Assembly: GCA_943350765.1 (NCBI GenBank)
Contig: CALRAJ010000002.1
Coordinates: 7,994-71,993, forward strand
From: Candidatus Tayloriibacteriota bacterium
GTDB taxonomy: Bacteria > Patescibacteriota > Minisyncoccia > Phycocordibacterales > PALSA-1337
DNA: 64,000 nucleotides
Direction of reading: 5' to 3'
This document shows positions 21,076 through 42,534 of this stretch, piece after piece. The number at the start of each line of letters is the position of its first letter. Within the stretch, counting starts at the first letter, position 1. The position numbers and the translations under genes are program-made. The notes under the pieces were generated by a model. It did not search any database. It was not told where the DNA came from and saw only the letters and a program-made list of their open reading frames with translations.

Positions 21076-21085
21076 TTATAATTGG

Positions 21086-22953: not shown

Positions 22954-22956
22954 TAT

Positions 22957-24772: not shown

Positions 24773-26144
24773 GACCCTTCTGATAACAGTATTTCATAGT
24801 TTTATTTCAAAAAACTTTCTTAACACAGAGGCATTCTCTTTGTTGAAATCCTCGCCAGGACTCAAGATAATATTAATGGTCCCTAAAAATAAAGAAAGCT
24901 TTTTTACAGAACAGTATTCTGGTGTGAATGTCGTGGTGGCTGGATTTGATTTTGGTAGTATTCTCAGTAGAAAAAAAGTACAAATTTTATCTGCACTGAG
25001 CCATCTTCTTTTGGATTCCCATTATCTTTGGTATAAAAAGGTGGAACGGCGTGACAAAAGTACCCACTTACTAAGATCCATTAAGTATTATTTTGAACTA
25101 GCATTTACATATGTTTTTTCCGGTAAAAAGTATGCACATTCTGTGCTAAGATTTCTATTTAAAAAGATGCTTGTGGTCCCAGAAATTGAAGCTTTGTTCG
25201 ATCGATATGTACCAGATATTGTATTTTCTACAGATGTGTTTGATGAAATGGATGTCTTGGTAAATAGGGAGGCCAGAGCTCGAAGTATAAGGATTATTGG
25301 TATGGTCAGATCATGGGACAATTGCTACAGTAAGGGTGTTTTGCGAGTCATCCCCGACACTCTTTTGGTTAATAATGTAGAAATTAAAAAAGAAGCAATC
25401 TCTCTCCACGATGTTTGTGAAGATCAAATCAGTATTGTTGGTTTACCGCAATATGACCAGTTTGTGAATGGTGTTCGGACAGAGCGTAAAGACTTCTTTC
25501 GTGAAATAGGCGCAGATCAAAATAAAAAATTAATTCTTTTTTCTCCTGCTGGTTCAGTACTCTCAGATATTGATTGGCAGTTATGTACTATATTGAAGCG
25601 ATTGGTTGACACACATAAAATAAATGAACCGGTGACATTTCTAATTCGGAATCACCCACATCATCCGGCCGACTTGTCACTATTTAAGTCAGATTCAAAT
25701 TTTATAATAGAAAGACCCGGTACCTCGTTCGGCCTTAATGGTAAGGAGGTCGAGTTGTCTAGAAAAGACTCTCAACATCTCGGAGACTCTCTTTATTATA
25801 GTGATATTGTTATGTATGTCGCGACGACTTTGGGTAATGATTCATTACTTTTTGATAAGCCACAGATTATCATTAATTTTGACGGTTGGGAGAACAAAGA
25901 ATATGCAAGAAGCACTAAGAGATACCATAACGAAGACCATATGAAAAAGATGATAGCGTGCGGGGGTGTTTCGGTGGTTACAAATGAACAGGAGTTGACG
26001 ATAGCTCTAAACGCTTATTTGAAGGACCCTGGATATTTAAAGGAGGGGCGCTTGCGGACACTTGCTCAGCAGGTTTGTTATACGGACGGCAAGTCATGTG
26101 AAAGAATCACTCGTTGTCTCAATGAAGAACTGAAAAAAGTATAG
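24762..26144 (+). CDS. Hypothetical polysaccharide-biosynthesis protein (GT-B-like?)
   Basis: About 460-aa ORF in the glycan locus; no confident motif. Confidence 0.45.
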   Translation: MKDKTLLITVFHSFISKNFLNTEAFSLLKSSPGLKIILMVPKNKESFFTEQYSGVNVVVAGFDFGSILSRKKVQILSALSHLLLDSHYLWYKKVERRDKSTHLLRSIKYYFELAFTYVFSGKKYAHSVLRFLFKKMLVVPEIEALFDRYVPDIVFSTDVFDEMDVLVNREARARSIRIIGMVRSWDNCYSKGVLRVIPDTLLVNNVEIKKEAISLHDVCEDQISIVGLPQYDQFVNGVRTERKDFFREIGADQNKKLILFSPAGSVLSDIDWQLCTILKRLVDTHKINEPVTFLIRNHPHHPADLSLFKSDSNFIIERPGTSFGLNGKEVELSRKDSQHLGDSLYYSDIVMYVATTLGNDSLLFDKPQIIINFDGWENKEYARSTKRYHNEDHMKKMIACGGVSVVTNEQELTIALNAYLKDPGYLKEGRLRTLAQQVCYTDGKSCERITRCLNEELKKV

Positions 26145-26178
26145 TCAAAACTATTTGATATGGTAATATACATGGAAT

Positions 26179-27390
26179 ATGGATCAAAATAATGTTGTTG
26201 GTATTCAGATAAAGGACATACTCAAATCCACTCGTCTTGGTTTATTTCCATTACCGACAGATGTTTCTATTGAAGAATGCTGGACATGTTTCTGTTGTAC
26301 TAAAAAACTGGAAGTTTTTGCTGTATTAATTGGGGTAAAAGTACATTCTCAAATTCGTGTCGGAGTCTGTGGTTACTGTGGGTATATGGGGTATATTGAT
26401 CGGCCAGCCAAGGCATGGCTTACTTCCTTTTATTCTATTGATTGGGATAAAGAGTTTATGCGTTCGGCTACACAGATGAAAAGTGATGTTGTTTTGCAGA
26501 AGGGTGGTGTTAAAGGTAGTAGACAGCGTGCTTTTGAGCTCCATCGTCAGGTTCCGGTTGATAAAAAGAAGCCTTATTTTGAAATTGGAAGTGGTTACGG
26601 CCAAGTTATGAAGAACTTTGAAATTGCAGGTTTCGAAAAGCTCTATGGCATAGAGAATTCTAAACATCGAACTGAATTGGTAAAAAAAGTGTTTGGTTTC
26701 GAAATCCATCACGGTGATTTTGGGAGTAGAGAGGTCACAGAAAAGATCAATAAAAATGCTCCATACGGGCTTATTTTTTCACACCATGTGCTTGAGCATG
26801 TATACGATCCAAATGAGGTGGTGCGTGCTATGGCAGGGATGCAGGATGAAGGGGACTATGCTATTTTTGCAGTACCCAACGTTGCTGGTGAACATATGAA
26901 TTATGTCACTTTGTACTGGCCACATTTACATGGGTTTACAAAAGAGTCGCTCGAAATACTTTTTAATCGTCATGGTTATGAGGTCGTTGTCGACGGGTCC
27001 CCAGATATACTTAATATTATTTTTGTCCTAAAAAAAACAAAGAATCCAAAAGCAATTTTTAAAAAGAGAGATGATTATGTTGCTGAGGCAAAAAAACGAA
27101 TTCGTGTTGCCATGAGTGCAGGTGTCTTGTCGAAAGGTCTATCTGAGCTTCTTTGGGACCAAAAAATCACAGAGAGAGATAATTCATCAGTGCAAAAAAT
27201 AAGCGGGGGATTTTTCGGGGGAATTATTATTTGGCATGCGAAACAAATAATTTCTTGGATAAAGTCCAGAATTTTTAAAAGGCTTAGTGTGCAGTATTCA
27301 TTGCTTGTTTCGCCTGTTTTTGAGAAGATTAGTAAATATGATGCTTTCGAGATACAATTTAAAAAGAATATTACTTTCTTAATAAAATAG
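26179..27390 (+). CDS. SAM-dependent methyltransferase with N-terminal Cys-rich (zinc-ribbon-like) region
   Basis: CWTCFCC..CGYCGYM cysteine cluster; motif I FEIGSGYGQV; HHVLEHVYDP. Confidence 0.6.
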   Translation: MDQNNVVGIQIKDILKSTRLGLFPLPTDVSIEECWTCFCCTKKLEVFAVLIGVKVHSQIRVGVCGYCGYMGYIDRPAKAWLTSFYSIDWDKEFMRSATQMKSDVVLQKGGVKGSRQRAFELHRQVPVDKKKPYFEIGSGYGQVMKNFEIAGFEKLYGIENSKHRTELVKKVFGFEIHHGDFGSREVTEKINKNAPYGLIFSHHVLEHVYDPNEVVRAMAGMQDEGDYAIFAVPNVAGEHMNYVTLYWPHLHGFTKESLEILFNRHGYEVVVDGSPDILNIIFVLKKTKNPKAIFKKRDDYVAEAKKRIRVAMSAGVLSKGLSELLWDQKITERDNSSVQKISGGFFGGIIIWHAKQIISWIKSRIFKRLSVQYSLLVSPVFEKISKYDAFEIQFKKNITFLIK

Positions 27391-27392
27391 AT

Positions 27393-28145
27393 ATGATTCA
27401 GTATTATAATGTTGAGGCTTTTGCTCAGTTAAAAAAAGAACGGAAAACAGCCGGCAGGGGATTTAAGTACGGTTTTGTTACGGGTGTGTTTAAGGAAGAT
27501 GTATATAAGGAACTCATTCGCACTTTCCCTGATGTTAAGAAGTTTGAATTAGTAGATAAAGAATCCGGTGGAGGACATAAACGATTTTATGTTGGACCAA
27601 ATTATTATAGCGGAAAACATTGGGGGTCTACTAGACATCTCAATGGACTTCCTGAAATATGGAAAGAGGTTATAAAAGAATCTGGTTCAAAAGAACTACT
27701 TGATTTAGTAGCTGACGCTACAGGTGTTGATTGTAACTCACTTTGTAATTTTGGATTTACATACGGCAACGAGGGGTGTGTTCAGGGGCCACATATTGAT
27801 GGTGCTGCTCGACCAAATGACCCATCTCCTGTACACGCCACCATCGCCTGCCTGCTTTACTTTAATGAAAAAACAGGTGGTGTCGCGGGGACGGAAGTCT
27901 ATGATATTGATCGAAAAACAGTTTTGTTTGCGGTGCCTGATTTGCGAAACAGTTTCTTCTATTTTGAACAACATCCTGATTCTTGGCATGGTTTTCCGAC
28001 TGTACCAAAGGGGGCAGACCGTCGCCTGGTGAGTCTTTCATTTAGTCAGGAGAAAGATATAATCAAGATAGATGACTCATTCCTTAATGTAGTTTACCTT
28101 AAGAGTTTTGTTAAAGGGTTAATTAAAAAGATATTTAGTCGCTAG
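27393..28145 (+). CDS. 2OG-Fe(II) oxygenase-like protein
   Basis: HxD (GPHIDGAA), distal His (HPDSWHGF) and RxS (RRLVSLSF) triad arrangement. Confidence 0.45.
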   Translation: MIQYYNVEAFAQLKKERKTAGRGFKYGFVTGVFKEDVYKELIRTFPDVKKFELVDKESGGGHKRFYVGPNYYSGKHWGSTRHLNGLPEIWKEVIKESGSKELLDLVADATGVDCNSLCNFGFTYGNEGCVQGPHIDGAARPNDPSPVHATIACLLYFNEKTGGVAGTEVYDIDRKTVLFAVPDLRNSFFYFEQHPDSWHGFPTVPKGADRRLVSLSFSQEKDIIKIDDSFLNVVYLKSFVKGLIKKIFSR

Positions 28146-28196
28146 CGTTACGGTTGGTAAACATTATTGCAGGTACACTTTGTTTATCAGGTCGAT

Positions 28197-28925
28197 CTAT
28201 TTGTCTAACAAAAGTTTTTTGAATCTTATTTCTGACACTTCCCATTCGTCTGGGGTGTTAATATCCATTTCGTATTTTGCTGGTTCAGCCGTCACACAGA
28301 GCTCTACTTTATCGCCATAGAGATTTGGTCGCTCTGGGTCGTAGAGATTTTTTGGCTTCAAGACATATGCGATGTCATTTCGAGCGTAACATTTCTGAGG
28401 AAAATCTTGTCGACGGGTGAGTATTTTTTTAAGGGGCACATTTCCCCAGAGGGTAATTTTGCTATCCGGATTTCTGGTCAATGTCCAGTACGGAGTATGG
28501 TTTGCAGGTGTTTCGTTTACTGTTATCACAGAGTCAGCCAATGTTTTTTTAAAAATCTCGATTGCTTCTGTTAGATGATCTGCCTTTCGAGCTGGACTTG
28601 TTGGAAGGACCATAATAAGACCATCCGCCTCATAACCCTCGTTTTCTTTGAGCCATTCATATGTATGTTTTAGGACGGGTTCTATACCTATGGTGTCAAT
28701 TGAAAATTCTGGTGGTCTTAAAAAAGGTACTTCGGCACCATGTTCTTTTGCAATATCTGATATTTCTTTACTGTCCGTCGAGACGATGACCCTATCTATT
28801 AGAGGACAATTCTTTGCAGTTTCTATTGTCCATGCGATCAGGGGCTTACCACAAAAATCTCGGATATTTTTAAAAGGGATAGATTTTGAGCCACCTCTTG
28901 CTGGTATAATTGCTATAATTTTCAT
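28197..28925 (-). CDS. CMP-nonulosonic acid synthetase (acylneuraminate cytidylyltransferase family)
   Basis: MKIIAIIPARGGSKSIPFKNI...GKPLIAWTIE N-terminus diagnostic of the CMP-NeuAc/CMP-KDO synthetase fold. Confidence 0.8.
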   Translation of the reverse strand: MKIIAIIPARGGSKSIPFKNIRDFCGKPLIAWTIETAKNCPLIDRVIVSTDSKEISDIAKEHGAEVPFLRPPEFSIDTIGIEPVLKHTYEWLKENEGYEADGLIMVLPTSPARKADHLTEAIEIFKKTLADSVITVNETPANHTPYWTLTRNPDSKITLWGNVPLKKILTRRQDFPQKCYARNDIAYVLKPKNLYDPERPNLYGDKVELCVTAEPAKYEMDINTPDEWEVSEIRFKKLLLDK

Positions 28926-28957
28926 AACATATAGTATACTATATCAGTCTTTAATAT

Positions 28958-29905
28958 ATGCAAATTTTAAATTGGAAAATCGACCCAGTTTTGAAGAAAG
29001 AAATTGATGAGCATTATCGAACCGATTTTGCCTTGTCGATTAAAAATGAACCCGTAATCAATATAGTAAAAAAGATTACATTTGATAGTGTAGCTCCAAA
29101 TATTACCATTGAAGATGTGAAAATCTTTATGGATTATATAAATGAAACATTTCTAGATAGGGGAATCAAAGGTGTTGGACTTGAGGTTGGGGGAGGTTGC
29201 GGATTTTTTAGTGCATTACTTGCAACATATGCATCGGTTGAAAAAGTTTATTCTATTGAGATTTGTGAAAATATTGTTCGTGAGCTGATGCCTAAAGTTA
29301 TAGAAGAAGTTGCCGGGGAACACAAGGTGTATGAAAAAGTAATTGGCTGTGTCGGTGATTTTGATCGACTTGAGTTACCGAATGCATCGGTTGATTTTGT
29401 ATTTGATTTCTACTCACTACATCATTCATCAGATATAAAAAAGACTTTTACGGAGATTTGTCGAGTGCTCAAACATGGAGGCTTTATCTTTTGTTTTGAC
29501 AAAACCCGCGCAAATTCATTGACAGACGAAGGTCTAGAAAAGCTTCTCGACACAGAGTACTCCTCGGAAACAAAAATATCGATGGGTTTACCCCCGAACA
29601 TATTCCATACCCGTCGCATGAATGGTGAAAAAGAATACCGGCTCAAGGATTGGCAAAATTCGTTTTTAACAGCTGGGTTTAAAACTTTTAAGCATTATCA
29701 TATTGCTCGTCTTTCGGACACAAAATCTTTTACGAATCTAATTAAAAAAACATTATCGCTTCTTCCGGTTTCTATTCAGACTTTTTTTACGAAAATTCTG
29801 TCTCGTGATGGCAACAAAAATAATCTCGAGCAGTCCCATAAGATATATACCAAACTCGTCAACAATTTCCCTAAAGAGATTTCATTGATGGTGGTGCGGA
29901 AATAG
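28958..29905 (+). CDS. Class I SAM-dependent methyltransferase
   Basis: Motif I GLEVGGGCGFFS; VLKHGGFIF. Confidence 0.7.
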   Translation: MQILNWKIDPVLKKEIDEHYRTDFALSIKNEPVINIVKKITFDSVAPNITIEDVKIFMDYINETFLDRGIKGVGLEVGGGCGFFSALLATYASVEKVYSIEICENIVRELMPKVIEEVAGEHKVYEKVIGCVGDFDRLELPNASVDFVFDFYSLHHSSDIKKTFTEICRVLKHGGFIFCFDKTRANSLTDEGLEKLLDTEYSSETKISMGLPPNIFHTRRMNGEKEYRLKDWQNSFLTAGFKTFKHYHIARLSDTKSFTNLIKKTLSLLPVSIQTFFTKILSRDGNKNNLEQSHKIYTKLVNNFPKEISLMVVRK

Positions 29906-29956
29906 GTAGGTAGGAAAATAAAAAGAGGCTACCGAAGTAGCCCCGTGTGTTTGTGT

Positions 29957-31780
29957 CTATCCTGTCATGTCGAGGATTCTCTCGGTCTTGTCAGAATCGA
30001 TGTATCCACGAGCCTCGAGGAACTGCTCCTCGGAAAGCTCGCCGTAGTTGAGTGGCTTGCCGTCAGTGCCGTGAAGCACCTTGGTGGCGTCGTCGAGCTC
30101 AAGCACGTATTTTCGCAGATACTCATCCACGACTGGTTCCAGCTTGCAACCAGCTTTTTGTGCAAAGCTGATTCCGAAGTGCTCACCCAGTAGCTCTTGG
30201 ACTTTTGGGTGTCGGCACATCTGAGTGCCCGGGTAGGCCGTAGCAGTAAACATCCTCTTGTTGACGGATGCTACCGCGAGGTCGTAGTCTGGTGTGCCAG
30301 GAGTTTTGCCTCGAGTCATCTCGCCGATCTGCCACATGATAAATGCGACGGAGGTTTTGATTTCGCGAAGGCCTTCTTCTGGCCACCCCATGATCCATGT
30401 GCAGTTGGCATGAATGCCGGTTTCCTTGCACATTTTGATGCCGTTCATCATGGTGACGGGGAAGCGGTGATCGCCGACTTGCGTCAGCTGGTTTTCCCTA
30501 CTTCCTCTCGGTCGCAGGATAAACCCACCTTTTCCCATGCTTTCAAGCACTCGAGCGCTGGCACTTTCGGCACCGAAGCCGATGTAAATGCATCCGGCCT
30601 TGGCCATATAGCGCGCTCGGTCGTCCGCTTCGTCGAGGCGTGTGTGTGTGCCCCAACGAATACCCAAACCCTCGAATGTCTCAGGTAGGGCTTTCATGCG
30701 TGGAATGTTGACCCCGAAGTTGTCGTCGGGGAAGCCGAGGAAGTCAATCCCGTAGGTCCTGATCAGCCATTCGGCTTCGGCGCGGAGATTTGCAGGACTG
30801 CGCATACCGTAGTTGCGCTCACCCTGTCCTCCCCGGAAACAAAACTCGCAGGCGTAGGGACAGCCTCGGCTGGATACTGTCGTAAGGCTTCGTTTCATCG
30901 TAAACGATGTTGCGGAGCTATTGTTGGCAGCAGTGCCCCAGACAGGCGTTTTGATATACCACTCGAGCAGAGGATTTCCATGCACATCTTCGTGCAGGAG
31001 GTCCCATGCGGCAAATGGTAGCACATCCAGGTTTACAGGCCGGTCGCCCGCATACATGAGTCGGTGTTGTCCGCCGATTTCGCCCAAGTAGTAGGGGCTA
31101 TTTGACAGGAGGGAAAGATTCTTTCTCCCCCCGCGCTCTTTCAGGTGGTTGATCTCCTTTGCCATGAGCAAAATAACATCATCTCCTTCGGAGTGGGCAA
31201 CAGCATCGAGCTCAGGGATCCAACCAAAGAGTCCTTCTCGGATCTCAGTCGCGAGACCTCCGCCAGACACGAGAAACGCACCGGGCTGGAGCTTGCGACA
31301 AATCCTGGCAAAGTTTTCTTGCCAGCGGAGCGTAGTGATCATGCCTGAGAAGGCAATAATATCCTGATCGCCGTGTTTGGCGAGGTGAGCCTCGAGGAGC
31401 TGTTCGGCTTCCTGGAGCTTGAGGTGTCTACCGTTTGGCAAGCCACGTGCCATCGCATCTGCGTCCTGAAGCCGGTAGGCATTCAAGTCGAGGATGGTAG
31501 GCTCAGCTCCGTATTGACGAAGCCGTGCTGCCATAAGCCCCGGTCCTTGCGGAGGGGTGTTTGGCTTGGCACTTTCGCGCAGGGGCATGTTCACAAACAG
31601 CACCTTGACGCCTGTGAGTTCGCCAAATGTGAGTCTGGCAACCTGTGCGCTGGGGTGATCCAGCCCGACCAGCCGGCTCAGCTTGAGCTCGGGTGGTTTT
31701 GTGACTAGGAGGTTTGTCATGTCTACATTACCTTTCTTGGGTTGGTTTTGAGTGTGAAAAGTGGACGACAAATTGTTCAA
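29957..31780 (-). CDS. B12-binding-domain radical SAM enzyme (class B)
   Basis: CxxxCxxC (SSRGCPYACEFCF) preceded by a Rossmann-like cobalamin-binding-type N-domain (VLFVNMPL...GPGLMAARLRQYGAEPTILDLNA). GC-rich, unlike flanking genes. Confidence 0.75.
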   Translation of the reverse strand: MNNLSSTFHTQNQPKKGNVDMTNLLVTKPPELKLSRLVGLDHPSAQVARLTFGELTGVKVLFVNMPLRESAKPNTPPQGPGLMAARLRQYGAEPTILDLNAYRLQDADAMARGLPNGRHLKLQEAEQLLEAHLAKHGDQDIIAFSGMITTLRWQENFARICRKLQPGAFLVSGGGLATEIREGLFGWIPELDAVAHSEGDDVILLMAKEINHLKERGGRKNLSLLSNSPYYLGEIGGQHRLMYAGDRPVNLDVLPFAAWDLLHEDVHGNPLLEWYIKTPVWGTAANNSSATSFTMKRSLTTVSSRGCPYACEFCFRGGQGERNYGMRSPANLRAEAEWLIRTYGIDFLGFPDDNFGVNIPRMKALPETFEGLGIRWGTHTRLDEADDRARYMAKAGCIYIGFGAESASARVLESMGKGGFILRPRGSRENQLTQVGDHRFPVTMMNGIKMCKETGIHANCTWIMGWPEEGLREIKTSVAFIMWQIGEMTRGKTPGTPDYDLAVASVNKRMFTATAYPGTQMCRHPKVQELLGEHFGISFAQKAGCKLEPVVDEYLRKYVLELDDATKVLHGTDGKPLNYGELSEEQFLEARGYIDSDKTERILDMTG

Positions 31781-31843
31781 AGAGCGTTCGTCCGTATAAA
31801 ATAGTACTCAATTTTCTATATAAAGTCAAGTCATTGTTGTCGG

Positions 31844-32701
31844 ATGGTCTCTATGCTATTCTCAGTAATATATATGAATAATTTATTTTCACTCAAAGGC
31901 AAAAAAGTCGTACTGACCGGAGCGGCAGGCTTTTTCGGGACATACTTTGCCGAGGCACTTCTCTCGGCAGAAGCAGATAAAGTTTTCTGTGTTGATGTGA
32001 GTGAGCCAGGACTCGCTGATCTAAAAAAGCGCCTTGGCGCAAGTTCTTCAAAACAAGTCGAGTATGTTGTACTAGATCAAGGCGATCAAAAAATGGTTGC
32101 AAAAGTATTTGGCAAGCTGGCTGAGCATGGTGTGGATGTCCTCATCAACAATTCTTTTGTCTTTGGCGCACCGACTGGCTTTGCTCCAGCTCGAGGCCGT
32201 ATCGAAGACGCTACCTTTGAACAATTACAAAAATCTTTTGAATCTGGAATTTATTGGTCTATACAGGCTACACAGATTTTTGCCGAGGCAAGTAAAAAAA
32301 GCGACAAGCCATTGTCTGTGATCAACCTCGGCTCAATGTATTCGGTAGTGGTACCAAGTCCGACACTCTACGAAGGTTTTGATTATTACAACCCGCCCGG
32401 CTACAGCATGGCAAAGACCGGTCTGGTCGCGTTTACAAAATATACTGCCGCGTGGATGGGGCCACTCGTGCGTGCGAACATTCTCTGCCCAGGTGCTATT
32501 CCAAATGATGAAAAGAAATCGGCGAACTCTGAACAAAATAAAAACGATGCGTTTCGACAGAGAATGATTGATCGCACGGCACTCAAGCGTCTCGGACACC
32601 CAAATGATCTCGTAGGGACGGTGGTTTTCCTAGCTTCAGATGCTTCCAGCTATATTACGGGTCAAATGATCGTGGTGGATGGGGGATGGACTATTGTGTA
32701 A
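31844..32701 (+). CDS. Short-chain dehydrogenase/reductase (SDR); true start possibly 31874
   Basis: TGAAGFFG glycine motif; catalytic YxxxK (YSMAK). Confidence 0.8.
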   Translation: MVSMLFSVIYMNNLFSLKGKKVVLTGAAGFFGTYFAEALLSAEADKVFCVDVSEPGLADLKKRLGASSSKQVEYVVLDQGDQKMVAKVFGKLAEHGVDVLINNSFVFGAPTGFAPARGRIEDATFEQLQKSFESGIYWSIQATQIFAEASKKSDKPLSVINLGSMYSVVVPSPTLYEGFDYYNPPGYSMAKTGLVAFTKYTAAWMGPLVRANILCPGAIPNDEKKSANSEQNKNDAFRQRMIDRTALKRLGHPNDLVGTVVFLASDASSYITGQMIVVDGGWTIV

Positions 32702-32878
32702 ATAGCCCAAATTAGGAAACTCTTTCTCGGCGTATCTTTCTAGGAGTACGAATAAATTTCTGGTGAAATTTATCTCAGGTCTCGACTCCCGTCCTGCGCC
32801 GTCTACAGGAACACATCATCTACCGATGTGAAAGCCCCCTATAAAGATGTGTCTTCGACGAATTTCCTAATTTGGGCT
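32702..32878. mobile_element. MITE-like element, copy 3 (variant; TIR TAGCCCAAATTAGGAAA ... TTTCCTAATTTGGGCTA)
   Basis: Same TIR core and internal CTTTCTCGGCGTATC / CCGATGTGAAAG segments as the remnant at 52132. AT-rich insert inside the GC-rich island. Confidence 0.6.
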
Positions 32879-33029
32879 ATTTGCCTTGGTTGTTTACTGT
32901 GGATTATTGTGTATATGACATGTGGTCATTCTAATACCTTGAGTGCATCCAAGCTATTGAACCATTACCCGGTGGTATTGACTTTATTTGCAAATGGGTG
33001 TATAATAGGTTTTGGTCTGTTGGCGGTAG

Positions 33030-33647
33030 GTGCGGTCAAACAAGCTCTCTTATATGAAAAAACAATACTCGGAAACGCTCCTAGCGAAAGCTCGGAAGAT
33101 CAAGGCGGTTGTTCTCGACTGCGACGGCACTCTGACTGACAATACGGAGGTGACCGGTCTCGACGCGCCGTCTGCACACGGTTTGCTGAAGAGGCGTAGT
33201 CACTACGACGGTCAGGGCGTGTCCCTAATTCGAGCTGTGGGAATCCCTGTTGCGATAATTACGGGTGAAAAAGGTCCCGGCGCTCAGATGATTACCAAGC
33301 TCGTTGAAAGGTGGAACGGTCTGCCCTCTGTTAAAAATCGTGCATGGATACAAGTCGCTCTCTTCACCGGATATGCCGGCGAGGAAAAAGTTCTTAAGCT
33401 CCGCCAGTGGCTGAAGACAAACCAACTCACTTCTGAAGACTGCGCCGTGATGGGGGATGACCTCGTCGATGTGCCGATGCTTCGCGCAGTCGGATTTCGT
33501 GCCTGCCCGATTACCGCAGAAGAGGTAGTGCGGGAGATGGCCGACTTCATCAGCGACCGTCCTGCCGGCTACGGTGCAGTGCGTGATCTGGCAAACCTCA
33601 TCCTCACAGCTCGTGGTATTGATCCCACGACCCTGCCGACCAAGTAG
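33030..33647 (+). CDS. HAD-IIIA KdsC-like sugar-acid phosphate phosphatase
   Basis: VVLDCDGTLTD (DxDGT), ITG, MGDDLVDVPMLRAVGFRACPITAEE, AGYGAVRDLANLILTARG; classic KdsC/KDN-9-P phosphatase pattern. Confidence 0.75.
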   Translation: MRSNKLSYMKKQYSETLLAKARKIKAVVLDCDGTLTDNTEVTGLDAPSAHGLLKRRSHYDGQGVSLIRAVGIPVAIITGEKGPGAQMITKLVERWNGLPSVKNRAWIQVALFTGYAGEEKVLKLRQWLKTNQLTSEDCAVMGDDLVDVPMLRAVGFRACPITAEEVVREMADFISDRPAGYGAVRDLANLILTARGIDPTTLPTK

Positions 33648-33789
33648 GCTCGCTGGCGGTCCCAATAGTTTCCTCGCGTACCCTGAGTTTCTCGGGGTAT
33701 TTTTATTTTAAAATAAATCGCTGACCAAATCTGTACAAGTCCTGTATAGTATGATAGTGTGATTCTCGGTAGCTTTTTCCCAAACAATT

Positions 33790-34743
33790 ATGAGCAACAA
33801 AACAGTTCAGATCGGACCTTACGAGGTCGGCGGTAACAATCCGTGTCTGGTGGTGGCCGAGATCGGCATCAACCACAACGGATCATTGGAGTTCGTGAGT
33901 CGTTTGATCGACATGGCGGTGCTGGCGGGGTGTGGTGCTGTTAAATTTCAGACCCGCTCTGTGGATGTCGTCTATACGGCAGAGGAGCTGGCAAAGGCCA
34001 GGGCTGTACCGACAGATGTGGTTCAGCACGCTCTCATGCGGAGTGTTTTGCCTACTGAGGCAATCAGTCGCCTCGGAAAAGACATCACCAACACAACCAA
34101 CGGCGACCTCAAGCGTGCCCTTGAATTTAGCGCGGAGGACTACAGGTTGATCGACGACTACTGCAGGACCAAGGGTGTTATCTGGTTCTCTTCCCCTTGG
34201 GACGAGGCCTCGGTGGACTTGATCGAGCAGTTTAATCCTCCGTGCTTCAAGGTGGCTTCTGCGTCGCTTACCGACCGGGGACTCCTTGAGCGCATTGCGT
34301 CTTATGGGCGTCCGGTGATTCTCGGCACAGGCATGTCGAGCATGGATCAGGTCCGCAAGGCTATTGCTGTGCTTAACGGTGTGCCGGTGATCTTGAGTCA
34401 TACGGTCTCGACTTATCCGGCCAAGCGGTCTGATCTCAACCTGCGTGCCATCCATACCTTGCAAAAGGAGTTTGGTGTACCGGTCGCCTACAGTGGTCAC
34501 GAGAATGGCACGACCATGTCGGTGTGTGCGGTAGCGCTCGGTGCGTGCATGGTTGAGCGACACATCACCCTCGATCGGACCATGTTCGGCAGTGATCAGT
34601 CAGCCAGTCTCGAGGCGGTCGGTCTCACGACCATGATCCGCAATATCCGCGATCTCGAAGGTGCCCTAGGCACCGGCGAAAAGCAGATTCTCGATGCCGA
34701 AAAGCCGATTGCTGCCAAGCTCCGTCGCAAGGACACGCTCTAG
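33790..34743 (+). CDS. NeuB-family nonulosonic acid synthase (no C-terminal SAF domain)
   Basis: VVAEIGINHNGSLE...GCGAVKFQT, ILGTGMSSMDQV, HTVSTYP, SGHENG, MVERHITLD; matches the NeuB/PseI/LegI TIM-barrel motifs. Confidence 0.8.
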   Translation: MSNKTVQIGPYEVGGNNPCLVVAEIGINHNGSLEFVSRLIDMAVLAGCGAVKFQTRSVDVVYTAEELAKARAVPTDVVQHALMRSVLPTEAISRLGKDITNTTNGDLKRALEFSAEDYRLIDDYCRTKGVIWFSSPWDEASVDLIEQFNPPCFKVASASLTDRGLLERIASYGRPVILGTGMSSMDQVRKAIAVLNGVPVILSHTVSTYPAKRSDLNLRAIHTLQKEFGVPVAYSGHENGTTMSVCAVALGACMVERHITLDRTMFGSDQSASLEAVGLTTMIRNIRDLEGALGTGEKQILDAEKPIAAKLRRKDTL

Positions 34744-34766: not shown

Positions 34767-34797
34767 GTGGACACTAATACTGTCCACTTTTTTATTT
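34767..34797. terminator. Bidirectional terminator GTGGACA-CTAATAC-TGTCCAC plus TTTTTTATTTT between convergent genes
   Basis: 7-bp stem with T-run; sits between the NeuB-like gene (plus strand) and the flippase (minus strand). Confidence 0.55.
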
Positions 34798-36143
34798 TAT
34801 ACAGTAGCTTTACTCGCAGTGTTTTCGTCAGGTAATTCCTTTAAATTTTTCAGGAGGAAAAACATCACGAGGGCAGTGAGGTATTTTGTTACAACTAAGG
34901 AAACAATGATACCCAATACTCCATAGAAATATACCGAAATAAGCATGAATACTGTGCTAAAAATACTGACACCAAGACTAAGTATATACTTTTCTTTCAG
35001 GGCTTTTTTTGCGGTAAAGGCAGTATCAGATAAATTACCTAACAGTAGCATAAAGACGGAGTATATTTGGGAATAAAATACCGAATCCATATATTGAGGG
35101 AAGAATATTTTGTATATATAGGGTGCTAGAATAATGTAGGCAAGCACGATTGGACCAAGTACGAGAAGGGAAAGGAGGAATTTTTTTGGCACACTCTCCT
35201 TAAGTTCTTCTAAACTTCTTCCTGCAAGCTTGGGCATAGCAAGTGGTGCCAACATACCAACAAAACTGCGTACCTGTTTTGGTATTGCTGTAGAAAAAGT
35301 GTATATGGCAAGCTCAGCAGCACCTAGGTAGTGGTAGACAAGGACCTTGTCTACTTGAGCAGAAATATTTAGCCAAATATTTATAAAACTTATATGTTTT
35401 CCAAAATTGAAAGCTGTATAGTCGACGGGTGCATCAGTCGTCACCCCACGAGCTATTTTAAAGTAAAAAAAAGATTTAGTCAGAAGATCGGCTCCAAAAA
35501 ATACAGCAACTAAAGCAATTACATTGTCGGTAAAGAGGATTGCAATAAAAAATGCGACAGCTGCCGTAATACTTTCGACAGAATTATACAAAGAGCTTTT
35601 TTTAAAGTCTTTTTTACCACTCAAGTATGGACCGTATAATCCAACCGTTTTTAATAGCGGTGAAATACAAGCGATGATAATAAGCGATATTCCGAGCGTG
35701 TAGTTATTGTTAAATAAATAGTATCCAGCACCGATGAGTGATCCTACTACCATAAAAACACTCCACTTTAAACTCACGGAAATCGCTTTTTTAAATGTGC
35801 CGTCATACCCCCTTGCTACTGCCCGAGTTAGCGCTGTGCCGAGACCTGTCAATGTGAAGGTGGTTATAATACCTGAAATAGAAATAATGTATTTGTAATC
35901 CCCGTATACTTCTTTTGGTAGAAAGTGTGCACAGGCTATTGCGAGTAGGAATGATCCTGCGGAGGCAACTCCCTGACTGAAAAAGAGCCAAAAACTCCCT
36001 TTGGTGAGGTAAACCATGTCCGTCTTTGTAAAACGCTCGCTTTTGCGGAGAAGGGAATATACTCGACTGCGGAGGTTTTTTGGGGTGGGGTCTAGATCTG
36101 GCTGTGTCGGTATTATTGGCATTTCTTTTGTATCTATATCCAT
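34797..36143 (-). CDS. Polysaccharide flippase (Wzx-like, MOP superfamily)
   Basis: 448 aa, about 12-14 TM helices; typical Wzx topology and position in the glycan locus. Confidence 0.7.
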   Translation of the reverse strand: MDIDTKEMPIIPTQPDLDPTPKNLRSRVYSLLRKSERFTKTDMVYLTKGSFWLFFSQGVASAGSFLLAIACAHFLPKEVYGDYKYIISISGIITTFTLTGLGTALTRAVARGYDGTFKKAISVSLKWSVFMVVGSLIGAGYYLFNNNYTLGISLIIIACISPLLKTVGLYGPYLSGKKDFKKSSLYNSVESITAAVAFFIAILFTDNVIALVAVFFGADLLTKSFFYFKIARGVTTDAPVDYTAFNFGKHISFINIWLNISAQVDKVLVYHYLGAAELAIYTFSTAIPKQVRSFVGMLAPLAMPKLAGRSLEELKESVPKKFLLSLLVLGPIVLAYIILAPYIYKIFFPQYMDSVFYSQIYSVFMLLLGNLSDTAFTAKKALKEKYILSLGVSIFSTVFMLISVYFYGVLGIIVSLVVTKYLTALVMFFLLKNLKELPDENTASKATV

Positions 36144-36162
36144 ATATGTTATATTTTAGCAT

Positions 36163-38628
36163 ATGCAAACAAATAATATACTACGATATGTGGTTTTGGG
36201 TGGGATTTTTTTAGTGCCATTTGTTTTCCTAATCGTCTCAGAAAGCTTGTTTTTTCCATTTATTACAGGTAAAGGTTTCGTATTTCGCGTTATCGTTGAG
36301 ATTGTTTTTGGTACATGGCTAATTTTAGCATTACGAGATAGGTCGTATATGCCGAGCTTTTCGAAACTTACTATAGCACTAATTTCATTTACAGGTATTG
36401 TACTCATTGCTGATTTAGCTGGTATGAATCCAGTAAAAAGTCTCTGGAGCAATTACGAGCGGATGGAAGGCTTTGTAGTCATGGCACATCTACTAGGCTA
36501 CTATTTAGTCGCAAGCTCAGTTTTAACGACAGAAAAGCTTTGGGATAAGTTTATGCACACAGCTTTTGGTGTAGGGCTATTTATCTCTTTTTATGCTTTT
36601 CTACAAAAAATCGGAGAAATAAAAATCAATCAAGGCGACACCCGTCTCGACGCCACTCTCGGTAACTCGATTTATCTCGCGGTCACCATGCTGTTCCTGA
36701 TCTTCTTTGGTGTTTTGTGGTTTATACGAAATCGTACTAATATCTCAAATATTTTGTATAGCTGGATACTCGGTCTAGGACTTTTTATCGCCTATCCATT
36801 TTATGCTTATTACCAAAAGTTTTCTGAGATTCAAGACTATTACGGTAAAAATGTTATTCCACAAGAGGTAAAAGATCGAGTATTTTTTTGGGCTGGGCAA
36901 ACTCAAGCGGGTGTTACGACGGGATTGTGGCAACCGATACTTTTTTGGTTGGCAATAGTTTTGTTTATTGTGGCAGTGTACACATACGCAAAGAGTTCTA
37001 AACTAAGTTCGTCTCTACATAAATGGACGGCACATATTTTGTACGGATTGCTGATCGTGATCAATGTGGTGGTTTTATTTAATACAGGTACACGAGGTAC
37101 GATCATTGCACTTATGGGTGGCGCTTTTCTGACCGCGATTATTATTGCTTTATTTGAAAAGCATCGACCTTTGGTACGCAAATCTGCGATAGGGGTCATG
37201 GTAATCATCCCGCTTTTAGTGGGTGCGTTTTATATGGTTCGGACAAGTCATTTTGTTACGAGTCACCAAATGATCGCTCGGTATGCCTTGATATTTACAT
37301 ACGAAAACAAAACACAAGCACGAGGCTATGTCTGGCCTATGGCGATAGATGGATTTAAGGAAAAACCAATTCTTGGCTGGGGTCAGGAAAACTTTAGTTA
37401 TGTTTTTAATAAAAACTATGACCCGAGAATGTATGCTCATGAACAGTGGTTTGACCGGGCTCACAATGTGTTTTTGGACTGGCTCATCGCAGGGGGTATA
37501 CTAGCTTTTCTAGGATATGTTTCTTTGTATGGAATAGTGCTTTACTTTTTATGGAGAAAAAGGGAAGTACATTTTTCCGTAGTCGACAAGGCAATACTCA
37601 CGGGTCTTTTGGGAGCGTACGCAGTACATAATGTGTTTGTGTTTGATAATCTAGTCAGCTACATCCTCTTTTTTAGTTTTCTGGCATACATTCACACCCT
37701 TTCTCATCCGCCAAAAAATGAAACTCTTGTAAATTTTGAACTTGAGAAAGGTATTGTGGAGAGTATTATTGCACCAATCGTTATTATTGCGACAATTTTT
37801 GCAATATACATCATCAACTGGAATGCATATTTTGCTGGACAGACTTTGATAGATGCCTTACAACAGAGAAGTGGAAGCCCAACAAAAACACTAGAGCTTT
37901 TCAATCAGGTCTTTGAGTACGATTCGTTTGGTAGTAACGAGGCGAGAGAACAGCTCTCCATGGCTACTGGACAAATGCTCGGGAAAAATGTCGATCCTGC
38001 TATTCAGCAAAAATTCCTAACACTTGTGCGTAAACAGATAGACGAACAGCTCAAAGAAGCACCTTTTGATGCGAGGGCATATGTTTTTGCGGGTGCTTTT
38101 TTTAGTCAGATTGGACTGGCTGGCGAATCAGAAAAATACTTAGAAGATGCCTATAAGCTGTCTCCAAACAAGCAAAGTATCATTATCCAGCTCGGTGAAA
38201 ATAAAATGAACCTAGGGAAAATAGATGAGGCTGTTACTTTGTTTAAAAAGGCATATGAGCTGGAAACAACACAAGAACAAGCTAGAAATATTTATATTTC
38301 TGTACTCGTCTATGCCAAGCAAGAAAAAGAAGCCGAAAGGATTTTGATGGAATCATACGGCACTACTGTAATACCAGATGAGCGTTTGTTGCAAGCTTAT
38401 ATAAATACAAATAATTTTAAAAAGGCGTTACCGATAGTAGAGTTATTAATTGAAAAAGAACCGAGAAATGTAAAACATCATTTTGCTCTGGGTATTATTT
38501 TATATAAACTCGGACAAACAACAAAGGCAATCGCAGAGCTTGATCTAATAGTTAAAATGGAGCCAAGTACAAAAGGACAGATTGATGAGTATATAAAGTT
38601 GATGAAGGCAGGTAAGTCGATACAATAA
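36163..38628 (+). CDS. O-antigen ligase/polymerase-like (Wzy_C) membrane protein with C-terminal TPR repeats
   Basis: 821 aa; multi-TM N-half with Wzy_C-like segment; C-terminal 250 aa with TPR-like repeats. Confidence 0.7.
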   Translation: MQTNNILRYVVLGGIFLVPFVFLIVSESLFFPFITGKGFVFRVIVEIVFGTWLILALRDRSYMPSFSKLTIALISFTGIVLIADLAGMNPVKSLWSNYERMEGFVVMAHLLGYYLVASSVLTTEKLWDKFMHTAFGVGLFISFYAFLQKIGEIKINQGDTRLDATLGNSIYLAVTMLFLIFFGVLWFIRNRTNISNILYSWILGLGLFIAYPFYAYYQKFSEIQDYYGKNVIPQEVKDRVFFWAGQTQAGVTTGLWQPILFWLAIVLFIVAVYTYAKSSKLSSSLHKWTAHILYGLLIVINVVVLFNTGTRGTIIALMGGAFLTAIIIALFEKHRPLVRKSAIGVMVIIPLLVGAFYMVRTSHFVTSHQMIARYALIFTYENKTQARGYVWPMAIDGFKEKPILGWGQENFSYVFNKNYDPRMYAHEQWFDRAHNVFLDWLIAGGILAFLGYVSLYGIVLYFLWRKREVHFSVVDKAILTGLLGAYAVHNVFVFDNLVSYILFFSFLAYIHTLSHPPKNETLVNFELEKGIVESIIAPIVIIATIFAIYIINWNAYFAGQTLIDALQQRSGSPTKTLELFNQVFEYDSFGSNEAREQLSMATGQMLGKNVDPAIQQKFLTLVRKQIDEQLKEAPFDARAYVFAGAFFSQIGLAGESEKYLEDAYKLSPNKQSIIIQLGENKMNLGKIDEAVTLFKKAYELETTQEQARNIYISVLVYAKQEKEAERILMESYGTTVIPDERLLQAYINTNNFKKALPIVELLIEKEPRNVKHHFALGIILYKLGQTTKAIAELDLIVKMEPSTKGQIDEYIKLMKAGKSIQ

Positions 38629-38645
38629 ATTTTAGGACAGGTAGT

Positions 38646-38687
38646 GTAATTCCCCCGATTTTTGTACTCAAAAATCGGGGGAATTAC
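38646..38687. terminator. Perfect 18-bp hairpin GTAATTCCCCCGATTTTT-GTACTC-AAAAATCGGGGGAATTAC
   Basis: Immediately after the ligase gene; no clean T-run. Confidence 0.4.
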
Positions 38688-38693
38688 ATGCTA

Positions 38694-38721
38694 TTGACTT
38701 TTGCTATAGATTTGCTATACT
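38694..38721 (+). promoter_or_regulatory. Near-consensus sigma70 promoter TTGACT-N16-TATACT
   Basis: TTGACT (38694-38699), 16-nt spacer, TATACT (38716-38721); followed by hairpins and a GC hairpin CCCCGCC-TC-GGCGGGG (38777-38792). Confidence 0.4.
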
Positions 38722-38891
38722 TTACCATGTGAGTACTAACAAAGGTGTTAGTGCCAAACGAATGACTGCGTAAGTCCCCGCCTCGGCGGGGGTTTGCGTT
38801 TATGGCTAAACCAAATTTACTAATTTGGTCGCCCGAACATTTTTTACTAAAAATGTTTTAGGGGAAGTCTTCTGTCTCCAGTGTCTCGAAT

Positions 38892-39103: not shown

Positions 39104-39295
39104 AATACAAATTCCATTCGGTTGGTGGGGAGAACTTAAATTTTTATTTAACTGGGGTATATTAGTTTGCTGTAGAAAGATTTATTATGGTATACTGATT
39201 GTAATATATTGTTCCAAGTTGTGGTCGACGACTGTACTCACAATAGTCATTTATTTGGAGCTCACACCCGTCGACCAGAATTTGGCGTAATATCT

Positions 39296-41842: not shown

Positions 41843-41846
41843 AAAT

Positions 41847-42530: not shown

Positions 42531-42534
42531 AACT

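Follow-up and report, generated by a model that had tools for sequence, protein, structure and literature searches.

The interval from 28197 to 34743 is best read as the part of a cell-surface glycan cluster that provides the sugar precursor. The cluster covers approximately 13.7–38.6 kb of the window, i.e. of the whole 64-kb stretch analysed here, which comes from a low-GC genome of Patescibacteria-like appearance and a small, uncultured bacterium (Table 1). As judged from its genes, the cluster most likely starts from a phosphorylated precursor, as animals do, to make a sugar resembling sialic acid. The ulosonic acid is probably a tailored, Kdn-like one rather than plain Kdn or Neu5Ac, and the cluster includes a conserved radical-SAM enzyme that is absent from the characterised pathways of this kind that were found. 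A preliminary description had recognised a triad of NeuB-family synthase, KdsC-type HAD phosphatase and cytidylyltransferase. All three are present, the synthase at the coordinates given, but a methyltransferase, the radical-SAM enzyme and an SDR oxidoreductase, all conserved together with the triad in relatives, had been overlooked.

Table 1. Features of the glycan cluster (positions in the window)
Feature	Position	Strand	Length (aa)	Family match and remarks
Upstream glycan-assembly block	13733–24772	+		~7 GT4 glycosyltransferases, 2 MetW-like methyltransferases, 2 ORFs without family match
TagF-like (Glyphos_transf) enzyme	24726–26144	+		PF04464, 36.8 bits
Methyltransferase, conserved tailoring gene	26179–27390	+		Methyltransf_23, 46.9 bits
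2OG-Fe(II)-oxygenase-like protein (weak), conserved tailoring gene	27393–28145	+		2OG-FeII_Oxy_3, 22.1 bits, below cut-off
CMP-nonulosonate-type cytidylyltransferase (NeuA/PseF-like)	28197–28925	−	242	CTP_transf_3, PF02348, E = 9e-24
SAM-dependent methyltransferase	28958–29905	+		Methyltransf_11, 55.2 bits; adjoins the module in Patescibacteria-like relatives
Radical-SAM enzyme, B12-binding-class-like	29957–31780 (called start: 29957–31720)	−		PF04055, 58.7 bits
Classical SDR oxidoreductase	31844–32701 (called start 31874)	+		adh_short_C2, 103.6 bits
C0-type HAD phosphatase, KdsC / KDN-9-P phosphatase family	33030–33647	+	205	
SAF-less NeuB-family synthase (“NeuBs”)	33790–34743	+	317	Pfam NeuB, PF03102, 235.6 bits
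Wzx-type flippase (Polysacc_synt)	34797–36143	−		PF01943, 54.6 bits
Wzy_C (O-antigen ligase/polymerase-type) membrane protein, C-terminal TPR repeats	36163–38628	+		PF04932, 73.4 bits; several TPR families

The synthase and its partner enzymes

An AlphaFold2 model of the synthase (pLDDT 92.7) has the NeuB-type TIM barrel, and the positions aligned with E24, K52, Q54, K154, H237, H258 and D269 of N. meningitidis NeuB, which we take to be its metal and PEP ligands, are conserved. The match to TIGR03569 (243 bits, cut-off 399.65) stops at position 275 of 329, having started at position 1, and the protein therefore has no C-terminal SAF domain; its C-terminus is a short KLRR tail, which is invariant. 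It also falls below the cut-off for PseI (195 bits against 340; TIGR03586). The best reference is mammalian NANS (39% identity, 199 bits), ahead of a NeuC-linked NeuB (161 bits), N. meningitidis NeuB (127 bits), the Prymnesium Kdn-9-P synthetase (123 bits) and BT1714 (112 bits). The last two are each about 30% identical to the window protein, so its clade is separate from theirs. In a neighbour-joining tree this large SAF-less clade groups with NANS and the Kdn-9-P synthases at 67% bootstrap. The KDN or mammalian type proposed in the preliminary description is thus borne out in the resemblance to NANS but not in membership of the Bacteroides/Prymnesium Kdn-9-P lineage, and the phylogenetic placement that it called for falls with the 9-phosphate synthases at only that bootstrap value.

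The synthase has the motifs KFQ-x-R, T-N-G-D-L-K-x-x-LEF and G-S-D. Its clade as a whole shows the patterns KFQK[RS], G-x-T-x-G-x-x-[KR]-x-x-LE[FL] and G-[ST]-D, and so do NANS, BT1714 and the Prymnesium enzyme, the full set of three characterised 9-phosphate synthases that was available. Both the NeuC-linked NeuB and that of N. meningitidis deviate at these sites. No solved structure shows phosphate binding by a 9-phosphate synthase, and the motifs, which answer the earlier call for a check of phosphate-binding residues, are therefore correlates rather than proven ligands.

The HAD protein, a putative ulosonate-phosphate phosphatase, carries DCDGT and GDDLVD motifs and probably starts at 33054, giving 197 aa. 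Its family scores, all below the cut-offs, are 79 bits for KdsC, 70.6 for KDN-9-P phosphatase (NF058599, cut-off 180) and 67.6 for TIGR01670. At the positions of BT1713, the Bacteroides KDN-9-P phosphatase, it has Glu56 and Arg67; Glu56 recurs in 40 of the 42 synthase-linked HADs and Lys or Arg at 67 in 38, whereas position 56 is occupied by Arg in four KdsC proteins of solved structure. Mutants of BT1713 at these positions are present in the PDB (E56A, 4HGQ; E56A/K67A, 4HGR), and the window protein has an insertion of approximately 20 residues beside the specificity loop at positions 64 to 67. The cytidylyltransferase, by its matches, is NeuA-like rather than KdsB-like: among solved structures CMP-Neu5Ac synthetases rank first (118.5 and 101 bits, against at most 35 for KdsB), and its identity to the Prymnesium CMP-Kdn synthetase is 31.5%. 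With its PseF score also below the cut-off (150 bits against 205.7), all three pathway proteins lie under the NCBIfam cut-offs for NeuB, PseI, KdsC, KDN-9-P phosphatase and PseF.

The same logic could serve another chain length, and of the alternatives this one, although unlikely, survives best. A NeuB-type enzyme replacing KdsA would convert arabinose-5-phosphate to a Kdo-like C8 acid, or D-glycero-D-manno-heptose-7-phosphate, by way of a GmhA-like isomerase, would give a C10 acid, followed by dephosphorylation and CMP activation. The slightly higher HAD score against KdsC, repeated in the PDB ranking, fits this reading, but the residues at 56 and 67 are those of KDN-9-P phosphatase; CTP_transf_3 includes KdsB, but the PDB scores favour CMP-Neu5Ac synthetases; and a Capsule_synth (KpsC/KpsS-type) gene adjoins the Giovannonibacteria copy. 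Against it, the characterised enzymes that the synthase matches best yield nine-carbon acids. The isomerase that is fused or adjacent to the synthase in relatives comes near true GmhA (192 bits against TIGR00441, cut-off 209), yet such proteins stay under both GmhA cut-offs and none is encoded in the window.

Conserved linkage and the probable phosphorylated route

A scan seeded with the synthase gave 75 loci, or 70 after removal of duplicates, from Saccharibacteria, Acidobacteriota, Melainabacteria, Chloroflexota, Myxococcota and others. Of the 70, 40 have a gene for a KdsC-type HAD within 7 kb of the synthase, and in 34 it is the gene directly downstream. Two proteins, P0030 and P0076, are fusions of the SAF-less synthase type with a GmhA-like SIS domain, and the synthase repeatedly has stand-alone GmhA-like genes (198 bits, cut-off 276) and genes for UlaE-like ketose-phosphate epimerases as neighbours. 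The order MTase-rSAM-SDR-HAD-(CTP)-synthase-Wzx-ligase is retained down to 58% synthase identity.

A family profile scan of ORFs of at least 150 aa across the 64 kb found no NeuC (Epimerase_2), PseB/PseC, LegB/LegC or KdsA, and none is annotated in the public record of this contig either, in agreement with the absence of NeuC and PseB/PseC noted earlier. The window also holds no isomerase or kinase able to supply the sugar phosphate, and the cluster no ManNAc-6-P-forming enzyme. Its conserved Patescibacteria-like part is devoid of aminotransferases and acetyltransferases, and the lack of amino-sugar genes fits a deaminated, Kdn-like acid. The route claimed in the preliminary description, from PEP and a sugar phosphate through dephosphorylation to the CMP-sugar, is supported by the linkage, the HAD residues, the synthase motifs, the NANS match and the isomerase fusions, and the phosphorylated substrate itself stays a prediction.

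A classical, non-phosphorylated route, somewhat less probable than a change of chain length, would have NeuC, Pse or Leg enzymes encoded outside the window supply free ManNAc or a 6-deoxy-2,4-diacetamido hexose, the HAD being unrelated or housekeeping. The gene survey spans 64 kb of the genome, and the solved structures nearest to the synthase are classical NeuB, PseI and SpsE. Many marine radical-SAM loci, moreover, have the synthase and cytidylyltransferase with no HAD nearby, and adjoin 4,6-dehydratase-like, DegT aminotransferase and Maf-like genes of the kinds usual in Leg/Pse pathways; SAF-less synthases of this type may therefore not all use phosphosugars. Against this stand the HAD gene directly downstream of the synthase across phyla, the scores under the NeuB and PseI cut-offs and the missing aminotransferase and acetyltransferase genes. 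NeuC occurs in three kinds of loci only, always with a separate NeuB paralogue (in the one case shown, from Giovannonibacteria, with a SAF domain). A further point against this route is that the window synthase has no SAF domain. In N. meningitidis NeuB that domain contributes Arg314, which touches the N-acetyl group, and R314A and R314K mutants are included in the PDB.

Candidate tailoring enzymes and the proposed pathway

The radical-SAM enzyme has the motif C-P-Y-A-C-E-F-C and a B12-binding match below cut-off (PF02310, 21 bits). It reaches no NCBIfam cut-off (at most 62 bits) and resembles solved structures only weakly (TokK 30 bits, AprD4 19 bits). We propose a tailoring role for it, in which it would act as a C-methyltransferase or as a diol dehydratase, and regard the SDR as a candidate redox partner in sugar or ulosonate tailoring. 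The SDR scores best against PRK09186 (121.6 bits, cut-off 255) and reaches 80–106 bits against KduD, gluconate-5-dehydrogenase and PtmA-type families. Among 79 loci seeded with the window radical-SAM protein alone, 55 hold a NeuB-family gene, 42 a cytidylyltransferase and 41 an SDR of the same kind (20 of the 70 synthase-seeded loci have one). Nearly all of these NeuB-family proteins are of the SAF-less type, have 275–333 aa, contain KFQKR and G[ST]DQ and end in KLR[RK], and rSAM-synthase-CTP is a frequent single-operon order. A tailored Kdn-like acid is therefore the probable product, and the presence of the conserved radical-SAM enzyme and SDR in the same module makes plain KDN or Neu5Ac unlikely.

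That this pair acts on another glycan component or an unrelated metabolite, leaving the module to make plain Kdn, is the least probable alternative: many synthase-HAD loci lack the radical-SAM enzyme (in the synthase-seeded scan 8 of 75 have it, duplicates counted), its window gene is divergent from the SDR-HAD-synthase genes and its family matches are weak, but the reciprocal scan, the shared operons and a conservation at least equal to that of the synthase (93/73/67% against 84/58/62% identity in close relatives; for the radical-SAM enzyme 93/73/67/46% in L003/L010/L004/L060) speak for a common pathway.

Neighbouring genes are conserved as well. The methyltransferase next to the cytidylyltransferase has orthologues of 87/68/70/46/44% identity in L003/L004/L010/L060/L011, and the oxygenase-like protein is 86% identical in L003 and 80% in L004. 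The flippase gene directly follows the synthase in L003, L004 and L010; the Wzy_C gene is kept beside the synthase in close relatives and in the Giovannonibacteria locus, and a ligase-like gene is found in 15 of the 75 synthase-seeded loci, duplicates included. The TagF-like gene recurs beside cytidylyltransferase and synthase genes in several phyla (e.g. L035, L040, L079 and L088) and in 8 radical-SAM-seeded loci; its product is possibly a transferase or polymerase using a cytidine-linked donor.

Taken as a whole, the following pathway appears rather likely to us. The NANS-like synthase would join PEP to an aldose phosphate, most likely manno-configured and non-aminated (Man-6-P or a tailored relative), to give a Kdn-like ulosonate with a terminal phosphate; NeuB homologues that make Kdn-9-P from Man-6-P provide an experimental precedent (PMC6200933). 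The HAD would then strip the phosphate and the NeuA-like enzyme form the CMP-sugar. The radical-SAM enzyme and SDR, which travel with this synthase type, may tailor the precursor or the acid by C-methylation or by deoxygenation of the AprD4/AprD3 kind. Finally, the methyltransferases, TagF-like enzyme, GT4 transferases, Wzx and Wzy_C/TPR protein would modify, assemble and export the glycan.

Comparison with known systems

The vertebrate NANS/NANP/CMAS pathway has the same sequence of synthase, phosphatase and CMP activation. NANS and the window synthase share KFQK, the G-x-T-x-G-x-x-K-x-x-LEF loop, GYSGHE and G-S-D-x-x-ASLE, but NANS carries a C-terminal AFP/SAF domain where the window synthase has its KLRR tail. 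NANP, although a HAD, is not of the KdsC-type C0 kind seen in the window, and the vertebrate pathway has neither the radical-SAM enzyme nor the SDR. In B. thetaiotaomicron the triad is likewise adjacent, in the order cytidylyltransferase-like gene, synthase, HAD, and BT1713 is of the same C0 type with the Glu56 marker. BT1714, however, has a SAF domain; the Prymnesium synthetase (312 aa), like the window synthase, has none. To these KDN systems the window adds the radical-SAM enzyme, the SDR and several methyltransferases.

The classical NeuC-NeuB-NeuA, Pse and Leg systems share the TIM barrel, the aligned ligand residues and a NeuA/PseF-like cytidylyltransferase, but the window lacks NeuC as well as a dehydratase and an aminotransferase, and its synthase is without a SAF domain and below the TIGR03569 and TIGR03586 cut-offs; where NeuC-NeuB genes coexist with the SAF-less synthase they form a separate pair. 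For the tailoring enzymes, similarity to AprD4 (19–25 bits), TokK (30 bits) and P-methyltransferases (51–54 bits) is weak, confined to the radical-SAM core and below every family cut-off. Fom3, like GenK a class B radical-SAM C-methyltransferase, acts on a cytidylylated substrate, and the window-type gene often adjoins a cytidylyltransferase gene. [quoted passage not shown]

Gene set and setting

The proteins on which the preliminary description built a phosphorylated (KDN or mammalian-type) route in place of NeuC-NeuB, namely a NeuB-family synthase, a KdsC-type HAD phosphatase and a cytidylyltransferase, were all confirmed by ORF listing and profile search. The interval assigned to the route, 28197-34743, holds these three genes, and with them a methyltransferase, a radical-SAM protein and an SDR that went unmentioned. 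The claim that NeuC and PseB/PseC are lacking was borne out for the 64-kb window, where PseH/G, LegB/C/H/G and KdsA were likewise not found, and neither was an isomerase or kinase supplying a sugar phosphate. The interval sits inside a glycan cluster, with about seven GT4 transferases, methyltransferases and a TagF-like enzyme upstream, and a Wzx flippase followed by a Wzy_C/TPR protein downstream of the synthase. Scanned permissively against Rfam, the 28.0-36.3 kb segment yielded neither a riboswitch nor any other RNA element.

Features of the window, with positions and supporting matches
Feature	Positions	Strand	Evidence or remark
16S rRNA gene, complete	4742-6255		
Group II intron domains D1-D4, short match	6447-6525		39.6 bits
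tRNA-Ile(GAT)	7327-7401		
Pyruvate kinase gene	from 7817		next after tRNA-Ile(GAT)
679-aa protein	11688-13727		weak matches to T4SS-DNA_transf and TrwB_AAD_bind (type IV secretion coupling); just upstream of glycan cluster
CTP_transf_3 cytidylyltransferase (NeuA-like)	28197-28925	-	PF02348, 84.9 bits (cut-off 22.6)
Methyltransferase	28958-29905	+	profile match
Radical-SAM protein	29957-31780	-	607 aa; PF04055, 58.7 bits; CPYACEFC (CxxxCxxC) present
Classical SDR	31844-32701	+	profile match
KdsC/YrbI-type C0 HAD phosphatase	33030-33647	+	DCDGT and GDDLVD motifs
NeuB-family synthase	33790-34743	+	317 aa; PF03102, 235.6 bits (ORF listing and profile search)
Restriction-modification cassette, about 3.5 kb	40571-43992		between murB and secA

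Otherwise the window carries housekeeping genes (16S rRNA, pyruvate kinase, MurD, MurB, SecA, GatB, GAPDH, Rpe, transketolase). A search of the whole 64 kb detected no 23S rRNA, and the rRNA genes therefore appear unlinked. Two methyltransferases (the first an N6_N4 enzyme), a BsaWI-type endonuclease, an HTH protein and a small ORF make up the restriction-modification cassette; since secA directly follows murB in an 85%-identical relative (L003), it looks like a strain-specific insertion. Two ORFs of the glycosyltransferase block (339 and 251 aa, at 20056-21841) had no Pfam or NCBIfam match at E 1e-4 and 1e-5.

Base composition varies from gene to gene. The radical-SAM, HAD and synthase genes (within 29957-34743) have a GC content of 55-56% and GC3 of 59-67%, all neighbouring genes including the cytidylyltransferase (22957-29905 and 34797-40363) have 36-41% and 30-37%, and the SDR is intermediate at 45.6%. 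The pattern recurs gene by gene in the close relatives L003, L004 and L010, in which the cluster has diverged as a whole to about 60% identity; L004 has a low-GC cytidylyltransferase gene placed between its HAD and synthase genes, both high in GC. Recent transfer of the GC-rich genes only was rejected, because divergence runs in parallel across the entire cluster and the low-GC neighbours show the same degree of conservation.

The SAF-less synthase and its phosphatase partner

The synthase scores 243.1 bits against the NeuB/LegI model TIGR03569 and 194.8 bits against the PseI model TIGR03586, below the curated NCBIfam cut-offs of 399.65 and 340.25. Because the match to TIGR03569 spans only model positions 1-275 of 329, the protein is taken to be without a SAF domain; PF08666 (SAF) gave no match in it, and its C-terminal end is KLRRKDTL. 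This AFP-like C-terminal domain is present in the animal sialic acid synthase NANS and in BT1714, the Kdn-9-P synthase of Bacteroides thetaiotaomicron (346 aa, NeuB and SAF domains), and absent from the Prymnesium enzyme, and is thus not family-wide. Residues E24, K52, Q54, K154, H237, H258 and D269 align with the positions that we take to be the metal and PEP ligands of N. meningitidis NeuB. The fold was confirmed by an AlphaFold2 model (pLDDT 92.7), for which the top Foldseek structures belong to the NeuB family (NeuB, SpsE, PseI); these methods do not tell phosphosugar from free-sugar use, and we know of no 9-P synthase structures for comparison.

In BLASTP the synthase gave 199 bits and 39% identity with mammalian NANS, 161 bits and 33% with a NeuC-linked bacterial NeuB, 127 bits and 28% with N. 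meningitidis NeuB, 123 bits and 30% with the Prymnesium Kdn-9-P synthetase, and 112 bits and 30% with BT1714. The NANS reference came from the protein database by a search seeded with human NANS, and BT1714 from a contig that has a copy of BT1713, the KDN-9-P phosphatase, at 99% identity; the sequences of the Prymnesium parvum Kdn-9-P synthetase, CMP-Kdn synthetase and BT1713 (identical to PDB 3E81) were taken from the supplement of PMC6200933.

As to residues that may distinguish 9-P synthases, the enzyme carries three signatures, which were derived here from a small reference set (three characterised 9-P synthases) with no curated definition behind them. In our alignment, NANS, BT1714, the Prymnesium enzyme and the SAF-less clade share KFQK[RS] after strand 2 (also given as KFQK[RS]/KMTKR) and the loop G-x-T-x-G-x-x-[K/R]-x-x-LE[F/L], together with G-[S/T]-D, where two classical NeuB enzymes have G-P-D. 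The window synthase reads KFQTR, TTNGDLKRALEF and GSD at these sites; at all three, N. meningitidis NeuB departs from the 9-P synthases, as does the NeuC-linked NeuB. We propose that the loop with its basic residue, perhaps together with the C-terminal tail, would bind the phosphate of the substrate.

The homology search returned at least 7,990 homologues at E <= 1e-20 among the best 8,000 scored, the best being NeuB-only proteins of 286-350 aa, and a scan of one genome per species gave at least 596 relatives. Named homologues come from Paceibacterota, Giovannonibacteria, Pacebacteria, the Patescibacteria group and Saccharibacteria, which makes a Patescibacteria (CPR) host probable; clade members also occur in Peregrinibacteria, Acidobacteriota, Melainabacteria, Chloroflexota, Verrucomicrobiota, Myxococcota and Planctomycetota, with Saccharibacteria again among them, and Acidocella aquatica is a cultured carrier. 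The consensus of the signatures in the clade is KFQKR, TTNGDLK-x-ALEF and GSDQ, and R56, N104, G105, D106, L107, K108 and the C-terminal K310-L311-R312-R313 are invariant. The phosphorylated route had been tied to the phylogenetic placement of the synthase, which is clear in part: the protein falls outside the cut-offs of both TIGR models and in a clade with 100% bootstrap in a neighbour-joining tree of sequences cleaned of fragments, but the union of this clade with NANS and the Kdn-9-P synthases, apart from classical NeuB/SpsE, was recovered in only 135 of 200 replicates (67%). What emerges is an uncharacterised clade of very large size, with members in many bacterial phyla. It is tightly linked to a KDN-9-P-phosphatase-like HAD, and animal NANS resembles it more than classical bacterial NeuB does.

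The four catalytic motifs of the HAD (DCDGT, ITGE, a conserved Lys and GDDLVD) align with those of BT1713. It scores 79 bits against the KdsC model NF007019 (cut-off 208) and 70.6 bits against the KDN-9-P phosphatase model NF058599 (cut-off 180), below the cut-off in both cases, and in whole-sequence searches is nearer KdsC than BT1713. It has an N-terminal extension and, like its subfamily, an insertion of about 20 residues beside the specificity loop. Glu56 and Lys67 of BT1713 presumably set the specificity for KDN-9-P, an assumption with which the mutants in PDB 4HGQ (E56A) and 4HGR (E56A/K67A) agree. At position 56 the window HAD has Glu, within a TGEK identical to that of BT1713, and at 67 Arg, a conservative change; among synthase-linked HADs, Glu56 is found in 40 of 42 and Lys or Arg at 67 in 38 of 42, and position 56 is Arg in all four solved KdsC proteins. 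The residues mutated in BT1713 thus point toward a KDN-9-P phosphatase, opposite to the whole-sequence ranking.

Gene neighbourhoods were compared in 70 non-redundant synthase-seeded loci, in which ORFs were called and labelled with the window's proteins; the counts are approximate, as genes were called by a simple longest-ORF routine. In 40 loci a KdsC-type HAD lies within 7 kb of the synthase, and in 34 it follows immediately downstream. Near the synthase, 22 of the 70 have a CTP_transf_3 gene, 20 an SDR of the window kind, nine a GmhA-like SIS isomerase and eight a UlaE-like TIM barrel of the ketose-phosphate epimerase type. Natural fusions join the SAF-less synthase to a GmhA-like SIS domain (P0030 and P0076, locus L009:6076-7695; 523 and 539 aa), and a paralogue is a NeuB-SAF-xylose-isomerase-like TIM barrel fusion of 629 aa (L035:16240-18129). 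NeuC occurs in only three kinds of loci, always adjoining another NeuB paralogue, which in the Giovannonibacteria locus has a SAF domain; these loci hold the SAF-less copy at a separate position. Such a pattern would be expected of a SAF-less synthase that accepts a sugar phosphate and yields a product still carrying the phosphate. Together with the shared motifs, the adjacent HAD and the GmhA-like fusions lend indirect support to a synthase that would take a terminally phosphorylated aldose (ManNAc-6-P or Man-6-P) and release an ulosonate 9-phosphate. The GmhA-like partners also fit a heptose-7-P substrate, which may lead to a ten-carbon acid instead.

Other arrangements were seen. Three Chloroflexota loci (L035, L040, L079) each have two NeuB-family synthases and, alongside, two cytidylyltransferases. 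In 13 loci (L025, L077, L043 and other Acidobacteriota loci) the synthase-HAD pair is directly followed by a 606-aa thiamine-diphosphate enzyme; genes for a nucleotidyltransferase, a 456-aa DegT-family protein and an NAD-dependent epimerase/dehydratase often come before it. Such loci may represent a separate branched-chain deoxysugar pathway or another use of the pair. PtmF of Campylobacter legionaminic acid synthesis was considered as a SIS isomerase paired with the SDR PtmA and dropped, the literature giving PtmF as a 326-aa oxidoreductase.

A conserved radical-SAM partner

The order methyltransferase-radical SAM-SDR-HAD-(cytidylyltransferase)-synthase-Wzx-ligase is kept in relatives at about 85%, 62% and 58% synthase identity. 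Conservation of the radical-SAM protein equals or exceeds that of the synthase, with 93, 73 and 67% identity in L003, L010 and L004 compared with about 84, 58 and 62%. As an independent test of the link, a metagenome scan was seeded with the radical-SAM alignment and gave 314 relatives. Among 79 loci so obtained, 55 have a NeuB-family gene, 42 a cytidylyltransferase, 41 an SDR, 29 a HAD and 24 a UlaE-like TIM barrel, and a radical SAM-synthase-cytidylyltransferase operon is frequent. Since nearly all of these synthases are of the SAF-less type (275-333 aa, with KFQKR, G[ST]DQ and a KLR[RK] tail), the radical-SAM enzyme appears to be a dedicated partner of the SAF-less synthase.

The B12-binding domain PF02310 matches the radical-SAM protein weakly (21 bits, under the cut-off of 32.1), the best NCBIfam matches are B12-radical-SAM families at no more than 62 bits, far under their cut-offs, and similarity to B12-dependent methyltransferases, BchE, HpnJ and AprD4 is weak throughout. 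C-methylation by class B radical-SAM enzymes is one precedent that would fit. The other would fit the radical-SAM protein and SDR together: in AprD4/AprD3, deoxygenation is carried out by a radical-SAM dehydratase with a reductase partner (PMC5461906). We found no paper in the searchable literature joining radical SAM with nonulosonic acids, and the conserved partner suggests an ulosonic acid chemistry not seen before. The module also offers a concrete enzyme set for in vitro reconstitution.

Marine radical-SAM modules often stand without a nearby HAD, their neighbours being dehydratase, DegT, class-III aminotransferase and Maf-like genes, and phosphosugar use need not extend to all of the wider clade. 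In 13 loci of the marine versions (within L125-L171, from marine and other metagenome contigs) a second CTP_transf_3 gene directly follows the radical-SAM gene, and some of these loci hold a second radical-SAM paralogue. Also encoded in the marine versions are aminotransferases of class III and of the DegT family, a cupin, a Maf-like (MptE-like) protein and a protein with a glyoxalase fold.

Product and relation to known pathways

The cytidylyltransferase has the N-terminal motif P-A-R-x-x-S-K-x-x-x-x-K-N, which reads IPARGGSKSIPFKN. It scores 150 bits against the PseF model TIGR03584 (cut-off 205.7), 118 and 101 bits against CMP-Neu5Ac synthetase structures, at most 35 bits against KdsB structures and at most 56 bits against KdsB models (cut-offs 155-281); this preference for NeuA-like over KdsB-like enzymes argues against a Kdo-type pathway. 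A KDO-8-P phosphatase beside a kdsA gene, named at the outset as the competing identity of the HAD, finds no kdsA in the window and is at odds with Glu56, yet agrees with the whole-sequence match, and the same KdsC-like similarity leaves an eight-carbon product a small chance.

We consider it rather probable that the phosphorylated-route interpretation is right in its core. The product is most likely an ulosonic acid, tailored and non-aminated, that this Patescibacteria-like bacterium carries on its surface. More tentatively, and short of what we would call probable, the radical-SAM, SDR, SAF-less synthase and cytidylyltransferase module may make an undescribed class of phosphosugar-derived, non-aminated ulosonic acids, C-methylated (possibly ten-carbon) or additionally deoxygenated by the radical-SAM enzyme, that decorate Patescibacteria and many uncultured marine and groundwater bacteria, with the SAF-less clade as the nearest sister group in bacteria to animal sialic acid synthase. 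In the literature searched, experiments demonstrate a phosphorylated route to sialic-acid-like sugars in animals, one Bacteroides species and one alga, and we found no paper on nonulosonic acids in Patescibacteria. If our reading is true, the phosphosugar route would be common in bacteria rather than the exception, Patescibacteria would carry an acidic surface sugar, and the clade would bear on the origin of the animal enzyme.

The gene set differs from the Kdo pathway (KdsD-KdsA-KdsC-KdsB) in that the window holds no KdsA (DAHP_synth_1) and the cytidylyltransferase is not of the KdsB type. Linkage, motifs and HAD residues support the core of the route as first proposed, which is nevertheless no copy of the Bacteroides or vertebrate pathway: here a distinct SAF-less synthase clade and a divergent KDN-9-P-phosphatase-like HAD are joined by a conserved radical-SAM protein and SDR.
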